Positions 19,898 to 54,151 of a stretch of DNA of 64,000 nucleotides are shown here, piece by piece. The notes beneath the pieces are model-generated. The model worked only from the letters and a program-made list of their open reading frames with translations. It did not search any database and was not told where the DNA came from. Origin of the DNA: Candidatus Latescibacterota bacterium (GTDB lineage Bacteria > JAAXHH01); assembly GCA_022823465.1 (NCBI GenBank), contig JAJEHX010000042.1, positions 18,047 to 82,046 of the forward strand. Direction: 5' to 3'. How positions within the stretch are numbered: the stretch's first letter is position 1; each line of letters opens with the position of its first letter. Both the position numbers and the translations under genes were made by a program.

Positions 19898-20998
19898 ATG
19901 AAACTGACTCTGACTTCGCCGCGATCCAGAAAAGAACAACTGGCCGTCATCCCGGCGCCGGACGGTAACAACGCGCCGGTGCTTCGTCTTTCGAGAAGCG
20001 GCGGCGAGACCCTTCTGGCCGAGCGGGATCCCCTGTCGCCTGCCTATCACGCCATCCTGCCGTCCATGAAAGCAGGCGAGGATTCAACCTGGGATGCCAC
20101 CGCCGCCGATGATGCCGCGCTGAGCTGCGGCATTGGACATGAATGCCGCGAAGACCGGGTGGAAGTGTCTCTGGGCGGAGCGCCGTTCATGACCTTCCAT
20201 CACGGTACGGGATATCCCAAGCCCTTCATCAATCCCATTTTGACGCCCGGCGGTGTCAACATGCTCAGGGAGCCCCTGCCGGCTTACAGCGAGGGAGAGC
20301 ATCCCTGGCAACGGGGACTTACCCTGATGCAAGGCGCCATCAACGGGGTGGATTGCTGGGGAGAATTCGACCGGCCCGGGTTCGGACGGACCGTCCAGGA
20401 TGAGATGGCCGTGGAGCAGGGCCCACTGTCGCTCGCCATCGCCTCGCGCAACACCTGGTACGAGGGAGATCGCCCCCTCATGTCCGACCGCCGGCAGTAC
20501 CGCCTCTTCGACACCGGCCGGGACGCCGTCATACTGGACATCCTCTTTACCCTGGTCGCCAGCCACGGTCCCGTGACGATAGGTTCCACGAAAGAAGGCG
20601 GGTTCCTGAGCATCCGTGTCAACCCTTCCATGAACGCCTCGGGCGACGGCCGGATGTGGAACGCCTACGGCGCCGGCGACGAGACCGGGTGCTGGTCGCG
20701 GCGGGCCCACTGGATGGACTACTGCGGACCCGTTGGCGGCGAGACCGCGGGATTCGCCGTCTTCGACCATCCGGACAATCCCCGCTACCCCACGGCCTGG
20801 CACGTACGAGGGTACGGTCTGTTCGCCGCGAACTGCTGGATGATCTGGGACGACTACCACTGCGCCGCGGACACGGAGACCACTTTCCGGTGGCGCGTCG
20901 TGATACACTCGGGCGATACGCGGGGGGCGGCCATCGCCGACCGCTTCCTGGATTACGTGGACGGACCACGGGCGGTATGGAACCAGGGTTTGGCTTGA
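19898..20998 (+). CDS. PmoA-family (DUF6807-like) protein
   Basis: ATG with AAGGGAG RBS. Composition and motifs resemble the 'PmoA-like' family that commonly co-occurs with Gfo/Idh/MocA oxidoreductases. No independent motif proof. Confidence 0.5.
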   Translation: MKLTLTSPRSRKEQLAVIPAPDGNNAPVLRLSRSGGETLLAERDPLSPAYHAILPSMKAGEDSTWDATAADDAALSCGIGHECREDRVEVSLGGAPFMTFHHGTGYPKPFINPILTPGGVNMLREPLPAYSEGEHPWQRGLTLMQGAINGVDCWGEFDRPGFGRTVQDEMAVEQGPLSLAIASRNTWYEGDRPLMSDRRQYRLFDTGRDAVILDILFTLVASHGPVTIGSTKEGGFLSIRVNPSMNASGDGRMWNAYGAGDETGCWSRRAHWMDYCGPVGGETAGFAVFDHPDNPRYPTAWHVRGYGLFAANCWMIWDDYHCAADTETTFRWRVVIHSGDTRGAAIADRFLDYVDGPRAVWNQGLA

Positions 20999-21241
20999 TG
21001 GGGCGCTAAGCCGGTGAACCTGAGTCGTCATCCGGGTAGCCCCGGACCATCCACCGTCCCGGTCTGAGAGGGGACGTGCCGTGCTGTTCAGGCGGTACAG
21101 ACCCCTTTTCCACGGATGTACCGGATATACCCGGTGAAAAACCTTCGTATAGATCGAGAAAATCACAAGAACGTCGACTAATGGTGGCAGAATACGTTCG
21201 TGGTCTGAAGAGATATCTACCATCTGCCGCAGGAGGCGTCT

Positions 21242-21604
21242 ATGTCGATCAACGAAGAGTTAACCAACAGATTCGATGCCCTGGAGAAAAACTTGACCAA
21301 GAGGGCCGATCTCTTTGAGAAAGATATGACCGACAGATTCAACGTCTTTGAGAAAAACATGATCAAGAGGTTGAATGTCTTTGAAGAGGAGATGATCAAA
21401 AGATTCAATGTCTTTGGAAGGGAAGTTACGAGAAAAATCAGTGAACTGCACAGGTGCGTAGATCGGCGGTTCGAAGCCATTGACCGGCGGTTCGACAAAG
21501 TAGACCAGCGATTGGGCCGGATAGAAACCGACATGGCGGAGATCAAGGATCTTCTGATCAACGGACGAGGAAAGTCGCATTTCGAGTCGACCGAAAAGCG
21601 TTAG
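21242..21604 (+). CDS. Small repeat protein made of tandem 11-residue (hendecad) units
   Basis: Strong AGGAGG RBS. At least 5 perfect-spaced 11-aa repeats (TNRFDALEKNL/TKRADLFEKDM/TDRFNVFEKNM/IKRLNVFEEEM/IKRFNVFGREV), followed by degenerate copies. Confidence 0.6.
   Translation: MSINEELTNRFDALEKNLTKRADLFEKDMTDRFNVFEKNMIKRLNVFEEEMIKRFNVFGREVTRKISELHRCVDRRFEAIDRRFDKVDQRLGRIETDMAEIKDLLINGRGKSHFESTEKR
21263..21427 (+). repeat. 5 x 33-bp tandem coding repeats inside the 120-aa ORF
   Basis: accaacagattcgatgccctggagaaaaacttg / accaagagggccgatctctttgagaaagatatg / accgacagattcaacgtctttgagaaaaacatg / …. Confidence 0.7.
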
Positions 21605-21795
21605 CGGAGATCCCGACTGTCGGTTAAACTTCTTGATAGCCTTTCCAATCTTCCTGTATCTTGTCAGGCTGTATCTTGTCGGGCAGTGACCCGCTGAAAC
21701 GGCCTTACGCGCCGAGGTCCGCTGGATCGTGTAGTCACCGGGAATCGATATCGCATGGGAAGTGAAATCGAATCCCATCTACCAAGGATGTGAAA

Positions 21796-53631: not shown

Positions 53632-53705
53632 TGGGCGCTAGTGGGATCGAACCACTGACCTCCACGATGTCAACGTGGCACTCTAACCATCTGAGCTAAG
53701 CGCCC
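53632..53705 (-). tRNA. tRNA-Val (anticodon GAC)
   Basis: Reverse complement GGGCGCTTAGCTCAGATGGTTAGAGTGCCACGTTGACATCGTGGAGGTCAGTGGTTCGATCCCACTAGCGCCCA folds as a cloverleaf with GAC in the anticodon loop. Confidence 0.8.
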
Positions 53706-53747
53706 TGCTGCGTTACGAACGTTCCCAGGAGTGTTCGCGACCCCGAA

Positions 53748-53834
53748 TGCCGAGGGCCGGACTCGAACCGGCACGGACTATTGAGGTCCGGGAGATTTTA
53801 AGTCTCCTGTGTCTACCAATTCCACCACCCCGGC
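53748..53834 (-). tRNA. tRNA-Leu (anticodon TAA), long variable arm
   Basis: Reverse complement GCCGGGGTGGTGGAATTGGTAGACACAGGAGACTTAAAATCTCC… has a GTTCGAGTC T-loop, an 87-nt length and an extra arm. Confidence 0.8.
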
Positions 53835-54151
53835 ATACCCTTCCCTTATCTCCCAACACAACTGCAACATGGTAGGGCTGGACACCGCGGAAGTCAAGGG
53901 GAATTGGTTTACTTCCAGGCTGCTCGAAGGCCAGATGCAACCAATCGAAATTCACCCAGGTGTCAGCCCGGCACGCGACCGAAGTGTCCGAGCAAACTGC
54001 AGGTTCAGGTCTTGAACACGTGTGCAAAAACAGTCAAAAAAAAACGACAACTCAGAAATCCCGCATCAGAGACAGATCGGCAGGAACCGGACAGACCGCA
54101 ACCAGGCTCTCCGTCAGGCCGACCGGTCCGCGCCCCGTCAAATCTCGCACC

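Follow-up and report, generated by a model that had tools for sequence, protein, structure and literature searches.

Tcar0761 of Thermosinus (PDB 5APZ; Hartmann et al. 2016, PMC4786415) is a small bacterial protein that consists of coiled coil only and combines non-heptad with heptad periodicities; it is one of the stand-alone bacterial versions of the DUF3782 stalk family, and the same study describes periodicity transitions in coiled coils and defines the β-layer motif as [aliphatic]-A-T-K-[polar]-[DE]. Here we describe a gene of similar appearance, an open reading frame (ORF) of 120 amino acids (aa) at positions 21,242 to 21,604 (+ strand) of a 64-kb stretch of DNA from a Candidatus Latescibacterota bacterium; the whole of that stretch is called the window below. 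The ORF is a real, previously unannotated and lineage-restricted gene for a small coiled-coil protein, and we lean towards the view, if only a little on the probable side, that this protein forms a parallel, in-register, homo-oligomeric coiled-coil rod, most likely a trimer, which differs in length between relatives and serves as a scaffold or spacer. Both the oligomeric state and the orientation of the strands are inferred from the sequence. Compared with Tcar0761, the window protein has no DUF3782 (PF12644) match at E up to 1, its 120 residues contain neither the A-T-K of the β-layer motif nor any domain beyond the helix, such as a nuclease domain, and it has a conserved core of its own (FGREVTRKIS..CVD). 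We take the relation to be a resemblance in design, not membership of the family; the function of Tcar0761 is likewise unassigned, so the comparison gives no role.

The stalks of trimeric autotransporter adhesins (YadA, EibD and SadA fragments) are parallel three-stranded rods that switch between right-handed segments with 11- or 15-residue periodicity and left-handed heptad segments. The best PDB matches of the window protein, none of them significant, were 3h7z, a YadA stalk (E=0.03), 2wpr and 2xzr. The adhesins, however, are surface proteins with a signal peptide, head domains and a β-barrel anchor; the window protein lacks all three, and a cytoplasmic location is predicted for it. Its score against NCBIfam YadA_autotrans is 11.1 bits, with a cut-off of 750. 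The right-handed hendecad coiled coils of the tetrabrachion stalk and of the peripheral stalks of rotary ATPases share the 11/3 periodicity and the continuous seam of residues 8–73. Tetrabrachion is a tetramer and the peripheral stalks are part of a complex; the window protein differs from them in its Phe-rich cores and in carrying a trimer motif, and there is no sequence relationship. The motif in question, Arg-h-x-x-h-Glu (R-h-x-x-h-E), is a trimerization motif of short coiled coils that lies within a trigger sequence and occurs in engineered cortexillin-1 and GCN4 variants and in the natural trimer coronin-1 (PMC3653964). The likeness to those proteins is at the level of the motif only.

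Repeats that vary in number are also found in the Bdr proteins of Borrelia, which are membrane-anchored and have a repeat length of 33 bp, or 11 residues. These are small proteins with strain-variable internal direct repeats (about nine versus about six for bdrT; PMC3303823). Bdr genes form plasmid- and prophage-borne paralogous families, and no sequence relationship to them was tested for or seen. Eleven-residue repeats are, finally, a hallmark of lipid-binding 3-11 helices: those of apolipoproteins, α-synuclein and perilipins fold only upon lipid contact, and droplet targeting of Plin4 depended on net positive charge (PMC5889406). An earlier inspection of the window from its letters (the sequence-only reading) had put forward both a lipid-surface helix and a coiled coil to explain the 11-residue periodicity; of the two, the evidence below disfavors the lipid surface and favors the coiled coil, on account of a narrow seam, flanks of opposite charge, five trimer motifs and a switch to heptads.

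Repeat architecture and the predicted rod

The gene and its protein divide into the following parts.

21,231–21,236 (+): Shine-Dalgarno sequence AGGAGG, 5 nucleotides upstream of the ATG, read from the sequence
21,242–21,604 (+): protein-coding gene, 120 aa, from the ORF list; frame kept in orthologs across 33-bp and 21-bp indels
21,263–21,427 (+): five 33-bp (11-residue) hendecads, residues 8–62, with core positions 4, 7 and 11 (F/F/M)
21,404–21,463 (+): conserved non-repeat core, residues 55–74 (FNVFGREVTRKISELHRCVD), with a conserved Cys
21,428–21,460 (+): sixth, degenerate hendecad TRKISELHRCV, residues 63–73, part of the core
21,461–21,502 (+): two 21-bp (7-residue) DRRF heptads, residues 74–87, the fast-varying array of the family
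21,503–21,556 (+): conserved C-terminal heptad segment, residues 88–105 (DQRLGRIETDMAEIKDLL), with R-L-G-R-I-E (an R-h-x-x-h-E) and a trigger-like pattern
21,557–21,604 (+): variable C-terminal tail, predicted to be disordered (INGRGKSHFESTEKR), and stop codon

The ORF with its AGGAGG ribosome-binding site, and the five repeats of exactly 11 residues, had been recognized in the sequence-only reading, and both are borne out: the coordinates and the site hold, and the five units (TNRFDALEKNL, TKRADLFEKDM, TDRFNVFEKNM, IKRLNVFEEEM and IKRFNVFGREV, in order) match the consensus that had been given for them. Tandem Repeats Finder places 4.7 copies of period 33 at 21,263–21,416, with 71% matches and 0% indels. 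What had been taken for further degenerate copies, in contrast, is a single degenerate hendecad (TRKISELHRCV), and the remainder consists of heptads rather than 11-mers (DRRFEAI, DRRFDKV, DQRLGRI, ETDMAEI and the partial KDLL), followed by a tail of 12–15 residues. The hydrophobic-moment spectrum divides in the same way. Over residues 8–73 it peaks at 98.0° (3.67 residues per turn, or 3.673), and over residues 74–106 at 102.5° (3.51 residues per turn), so that the 11/3 hendecad periodicity holds for the first stretch and the canonical heptad periodicity for the second, with the change at residue 74.

Hydrophobic residues fill 17 of the 18 cells at hendecad positions 4, 7 and 11, and the resulting apolar seam (F/F/M) is about 66° wide, with the Val of position 6 on the polar face. 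The seam is flanked by opposite charges: position 3, at −65° from it, is R or K in all six units, while position 8, at +65°, is E in four of the six. In the heptads, a is F, L or M, d is I or V, e is D or E and g is R. Five copies of R-h-x-x-h-E, at residues 10, 21, 32, 43 and 90, lie along the protein, where 0.21 would be expected and where none of 2000 shuffles reaches five; four of the five hendecads have one, and in 10 of 10 orthologs scanned one copy directly precedes the conserved C-terminal segment.

AlphaFold2, run on the monomer with a two-sequence alignment, predicts a single uninterrupted helix for residues 3–107, with a block-mean predicted local distance difference test score (pLDDT) of at least 91 through residue 100, and a disordered tail for residues 111–120 (pLDDT below 50). 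Foldseek, run with this monomer helix against the PDB, found no match, which is what a lone helix would lead one to expect. Weak matches came from a profile search of PDB sequences, mainly to three-stranded coiled coils (reovirus sigma-1, coronavirus spike, autotransporter stalks and CoilSer trimers). The orthologs have no signal-peptide-like N-terminus, and none of them has a transmembrane segment: the Kyte-Doolittle mean over 19 residues stays below 0.8 throughout each of them.

Locus searches brought the number of further loci to 14, and these stem from no fewer than 13 independent assemblies; their products range from 56 to at least 204 aa. Hendecads are counted below as those before the TRKIS unit, and heptads as those between the core and the C-terminal motif; loci other than the window carry L numbers.

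Window: 5 hendecads, 2 heptads, 120 aa
L002: 5 hendecads, 0 heptads, 97 aa
L003: 5 hendecads, 10 heptads, 176 aa
L017: 5 hendecads, 11 heptads, 183 aa
L018: 5 hendecads, about 10 heptads, 169 aa
L007: 6 hendecads, 9 heptads, 171 aa
L004: 4 hendecads, at least 17 heptads (array interrupted by a run of N), at least 204 aa
L005: 3 hendecads, 7 heptads, 125 aa
L006: 3 hendecads, 10 heptads, 146 aa
L009 and L010: about 2 hendecads, 0 heptads, 70 aa

The window's count of two heptads is taken from the assembly alone and may reflect short-read collapse. All length differences between orthologs are multiples of 33 or 21 bp, and the five-hendecad architecture recurs in L002, L003, L017 and L018. In L017 the flanking DNA is ~95–96% identical to that of the window, yet the gene has nine extra heptads. 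The 21-bp units appear to have expanded recently, since in L004–L006 they are near-identical to each other at the DNA level, while the 33-bp units, only ~71% alike, are older. Repeat-number polymorphism in related genomes, the check proposed in the sequence-only reading, is thus present (2–6 hendecads, 0 to at least 17 heptads), and the idea of a copy-number hotspot is strongly supported, mostly for the 21-bp heptad units and less so for the 33-bp units to which it had been applied.

The heptad array is at the same time an assembly hazard, and could serve as a strain-typing marker. In L004 (MAG SB0665_bin_8, a metagenome-assembled genome labelled Gemmatimonadetes) a run of N at ~10,343–10,450 lies in the 21-bp array, an assembly gap caused by the repeats. 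In L001 (10,210–10,290; protein P0001, on a contig labelled 5x) the first 70 codons equal those of L005 and are followed by scattered frame-shifting indels in the heptad array; sequencing error is the most likely cause, rather than a pseudogene.

Based on these features, we suggest that the product would be a small, soluble cytoplasmic protein made up essentially of one 105-residue α-helix. Its N-terminal half (residues 8–73) would form an 11/3 hendecad coil, nearly straight or slightly right-handed, around a Phe/Phe/Met core, and its C-terminal half (residues 74–105) a left-handed coil of the canonical heptad type. With Arg preceding the core residues and Glu or Asp following them, as in R-h-x-x-h-E, salt bridges could form between helices that work only in a parallel bundle; such a bundle would be favored because the opposite charges flanking the seam attract each other in a parallel arrangement and repel in an antiparallel one. 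Since copy number in one array changes independently of that in the other, in-register parallel pairing seems better suited than a hairpin or an antiparallel arrangement. The selected parts would be FGREVTRKISxLHxCVD and RLxRIETDVAEIKDLL, which may set the register in the manner of a trigger site and may present a conserved surface for a binding partner; residues 88–105 are our candidate for the nucleation or trigger site itself. The two repeat arrays would then be spacers, and in-frame slippage or recombination of the 33-bp and, far more often, the 21-bp units would alter the length of the rod. Helices of ~55 to at least 190 residues would, at 1.5 Å per residue, span ~85 Å to more than 280 Å.

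Several observations weigh against this model. The structure predicted is that of a monomer, and AlphaFold2 draws lipid-induced helices as confident helices, too. The definition of R-h-x-x-h-E comes from heptad coiled coils, and we assume by analogy that the motif has the same effect inside hendecads. Phe at heptad position a together with β-branched Ile or Val at d could favor a tetramer. The C-terminal segment GRIETDMAEIKDL does fit a loose pattern that we take to be trigger-like, but the pattern also appears in 1–5% of shuffles per sequence; a more direct similarity to the GCN4 trigger was discarded, as there was no BLASTP match and as many as 1620 of 5000 shuffles attained the ungapped score. 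No annotation, partner or conserved neighbor backs a cellular role, and some relatives have either a coreless 56-aa allele (L011 and L012) or lack the gene in the corresponding slot (L013 and L019).

Should the rod model hold, a Phe-cored hendecad array would switch abruptly to heptads within one ~105-residue helix, a trimer motif would be repeated inside hendecads, and two independently varying arrays would be bracketed by conserved, unique segments that set the register. The family would then be a handy model of how coiled coils avoid mis-registration and tolerate periodicity transitions.

An unlikely lipid-surface alternative and RF-repeat relatives

It seems unlikely to us that the protein is instead an amphipathic 3-11 helix, unfolded in the cytosol and folding on the surface of a membrane, lipid droplet or polymer granule, in the manner of apolipoproteins, α-synuclein, perilipins, LEA proteins or phasins. 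The exact 11-residue repeats at 3.67 residues per turn (with a hydrophobic moment of 0.45) are indeed those of apolipoprotein A-I, α-synuclein, the perilipin 4 33-mers and LEA group 3, and the 33-bp unit recalls, arithmetically, the 33-residue repeat of Plin4 (PMC5889406). Bulky Phe side chains could also enter lipid packing defects, and in one clade the protein ends in LLVKVLAKL, a short amphipathic stretch that looks like a tail for membrane targeting. The seam, however, takes up only three of 11 positions and is narrow and bulky, with Val 6 on the polar side; one of its two interfaces is acidic (Glu at position 8), where Lys or Arg would be expected on both; and the net charge is neutral to negative rather than clearly positive, at +1 for residues 8–62 and +2 to −10 for whole orthologs. 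Of the 12 HeliQuest windows starting in the hendecad region, nine give a discriminant below 0.68, and the C-terminal half has heptad, not 11-mer, periodicity. Profile comparison, for which DUF1640, LEA and apolipoprotein had been suggested beforehand, did not help the lipid case: the weak Pfam Apolipoprotein match (E=0.073) reaches 13.2 bits, far short of the cut-off of 90, the Pfam matches of the 120-aa protein at E up to 1 include no LEA, perilipin, phasin or DUF1640 (PF07798) family, and no transmembrane anchor is predicted.

The wider relatives found by sequence search are coiled coils as well. In an exhaustive HMMER search, 436 representative proteins matched at E up to 1e-3, only five of which reach 1e-10, with most matches falling on residues 72–103. 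These proteins make up a large, loosely defined "RF-repeat" class of coiled coils in which hendecads of the form xxRFxAMExx and heptads of the form xRFEAxD recur. In a set of 251 proteins that were retrieved, repeats most often have a period of 7, 14, 25, 11 or 18, and 89 (about a third) have a predicted transmembrane segment. Many of the matching proteins, such as P0034, P0153, P0043 and P0011, show xxRFxAMExx 11-mers and, after these, DxRFEAx heptads; several are annotated as DUF3782 or carry PF12644 together with PF07788, and some are fused to PD-(D/E)XK-type domains.

One could also read the window protein as a stand-alone "stalk" copy of such RF-repeat coiled coils, whether membrane-anchored or of the DUF3782-type PD-(D/E)XK kind, that co-assembles or competes with a full-length relative elsewhere in the genome. 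The shared hendecad-then-heptad design of many of the 436 relatives speaks for this, as does the precedent of documented stand-alone DUF3782 stalks such as Tcar0761. We nonetheless regard it as improbable: the similarity does not extend beyond low-complexity repeats and could have arisen by convergence, DUF3782 is missing from the matches of the window protein and from the 25 families most matched by the relatives, tblastn found no paralog or other relative within the window, and the conserved core specific to the family is not seen in the distant RF-repeat matches. A reading as a phage or anti-phage defense protein finds no support either: searches of PHROGs and PADLOC gave weak coiled-coil matches only, with none in PADLOC for the window protein, and a scan of IMG/VR found no relatives.

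Selection, loss and length variation

The non-repeat core is under purifying selection. For 36 codons, comprising the last hendecad, the TRKIS unit and RIETDVAEIKDLL, Nei-Gojobori ratios of nonsynonymous to synonymous substitution rates (dN/dS) are 0.05–0.33 across pairs and mostly at or below 0.2, compared with 0.34–0.66 in the hendecad region. The consensus FGREVTRKISxLHxCVD is kept in all full-length orthologs, including the distant 70-aa ones, and in the C-terminal motif the changes across seven loci are almost only synonymous. The tail beyond LL(I/V) is without visible constraint, since a single TCG to TAG change cuts it short in L002 (995–1018, corresponding to window 21,575–21,604) and point substitutions in the same DNA turn it into VKVLAKL in L004–L006.

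Whether the ORF would turn out to be unconserved or interrupted in relatives had been left as a possible objection to it; of the 14 other loci, 13 keep an unbroken frame, and the gene is absent from L013 and L019. In two independent assemblies, an in-frame deletion from FGR to DLL leaves a 56-aa allele that has lost the entire core and the heptads (L011 8001–8171; L012 3628–3798), which suggests that these are natural loss-of-function variants. From this allele and from the absence in L013 and L019 it follows that the gene is dispensable, and the wider importance of this lineage-restricted gene of uncultured bacteria is limited for now. The MAG with L002 is labelled Latescibacterota and the MAG with L004 Gemmatimonadetes, while DUF6807 homologs at 59–62% identity (DUF6807 being the upstream neighbor, see below) carry the label Candidatus Latescibacteria.

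We may speculate further that this is a contingency-type locus of uncultured, Latescibacterota-like and possibly host-associated bacteria, in which rapid in-frame gain and loss of 21-bp and 33-bp units tunes the length of a trimeric rod, and with it the spacing or reach of a docking segment that is conserved, and in which length itself is selected instead of varying by neutral slippage; the rod might then be a cytoplasmic "molecular ruler" or a decoy for a host or phage factor. We consider this extension of the rod model distinctly improbable.

The gene, its base composition and its neighbors

The sequence AGGAGGCGTCyATG, which joins the ribosome-binding site to the start codon, is invariant in 8 of 8 aligned loci. 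Two antisense ORFs (21,217–21,561 and 21,260–21,778, both −) were rejected, as their ends are not conserved, while the ribosome-binding site, the start codon and the pattern of synonymous changes fit the + strand. No Rfam family overlaps the ORF or its surroundings, and a reading as RNA was dropped for this reason. Among curated families (Pfam and NCBIfam), only generic coiled-coil profiles matched, all below threshold, and none claims the 120-aa protein. A further long ORF of 379 aa (20,084–21,223, −) runs antisense to the DUF6807 gene; it is of the spurious type common in high-GC DNA and is no gene candidate.

The locally AT-richer character of this stretch, which the sequence-only reading had remarked on, is confirmed by a GC content of 0.43–0.47 at the ORF against 0.63–0.66 in the flanks. 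Third codon positions (GC3) have a GC content of 0.64, compared with 0.77–0.84 in neighboring genes, and first and second positions 0.45 and 0.29; from the latter two values we attribute the drop mostly to amino-acid composition. Recent horizontal transfer was considered as a source and rejected, because the AT-richness persists in orthologs separated by saturated dS (GC 0.44 in a distant ortholog, against a background of ~0.60–0.65); low GC is therefore a property of the protein.

Two non-coding blocks flank the gene.

21,154–21,182 (+): upstream block, promoter-like by eye, with TCGAGA (−35-like), a 17-nucleotide spacer and ACTAAT (−10-like)
21,615–21,684: non-coding block after the ORF stop, CTTCTTGATAGCC...CCTGTATCTTGTCAGGCTGTATCTTGT, better conserved than the ORF repeats

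The upstream block has only 8 of 12 consensus matches and was not flagged by an automatic promoter scan. Its elements CGAGAAA and CGACTAAT are, however, kept in the seven loci that extend that far, and we regard it as a putative promoter. The block after the stop contains TTGATA, an 18-nucleotide spacer and TATCTT at 21,633–21,662, as well as a 15-bp direct repeat, CTGTATCTTGTCAGG, present twice at 21,654–21,684. This block belongs to moxR, since L013 and L019, which lack the ORF, still retain parts of it, and it is probably the promoter or operator of the moxR–DUF58 operon.

Upstream of the ORF lies the gene for a DUF6807 ("PmoA family") protein, and downstream follow a MoxR AAA+ ATPase and then a DUF58/VWA protein. 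The same order is found in metagenome contigs and MAGs at L001–L007, L011, L012, L017 and L018. That the gene is inserted between a PmoA-family gene and moxR, as had been pointed out, is correct, and the slot is truly variable. In L013 and L019 the moxR–DUF58 pair is intact and the ORF absent, with gaps of 190 and 230 nucleotides and DUF6807 proteins 76% and 83% identical to that of the window. In L015 and L016 (5235–7105), which represent a more distant relative, the slot holds three other ORFs of 66, 339 and 218 aa without a Pfam match, which makes the DUF6807–moxR junction a variable insertion site; the 66-aa ORF that follows DUF6807 in L015 was considered as a possible relative and proved to be unrelated to the window ORF. 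The distant 70-aa orthologs (L009 and L010) lie between an HHH_3 gene and one for a TonB-dependent receptor, with no MoxR nearby.

This variability argues against a functional tie to MoxR. A protein that serves the neighboring MoxR AAA+ ATPase and DUF58/VWA protein as accessory subunit, adaptor or substrate could be expected to lie where the ORF does, on the same strand and immediately upstream of moxR–DUF58 in the window and in L001–L007, L011, L012, L017 and L018, with no intrinsic terminator found between ORF and moxR. The MoxR-linked loci, however, are all closely related (DUF6807 80–96% identical to the window, for the homologs that were traced to loci), the moxR–DUF58 pair does without the ORF in L013 and L019, and a conserved promoter-like block belonging to moxR itself persists at loci that lack the ORF. 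As the gene is absent from the slot in these two loci and lies elsewhere in its distant orthologs, we consider the linkage incidental and a role in the MoxR system highly improbable.

Least probable of all, and very much so, is an ORF derived from repeats that is decaying or without function, or else an artefact of assembly: the two loci without the gene, the 56-aa deletion allele, the relaxed constraint on the hendecads, the atypical GC3 (0.64 versus ~0.8) and the assemblies disturbed by the array in L004 and L001 could all be put down to it, but the low dN/dS of the core, the invariant ribosome-binding site and start codon, an intact frame that extends to three chromosome-scale records of 3.8–3.9 Mb (L003, L005 and L006), the five-hendecad design reproduced in four other loci and the low GC that persists at saturated dS all stand against it.

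Two RNA features were seen in passing. At L009 8306–8495, just downstream of the 70-aa ortholog, a cobalamin riboswitch (RF00174, 94.3 bits) precedes the gene for the TonB-dependent receptor and is unrelated to the ortholog. In the window, the sole Rfam matches above the gathering threshold are a tRNA-Val(GAC) gene and an adjacent tRNA-Leu(TAA) gene at 53,632–53,835 (−).

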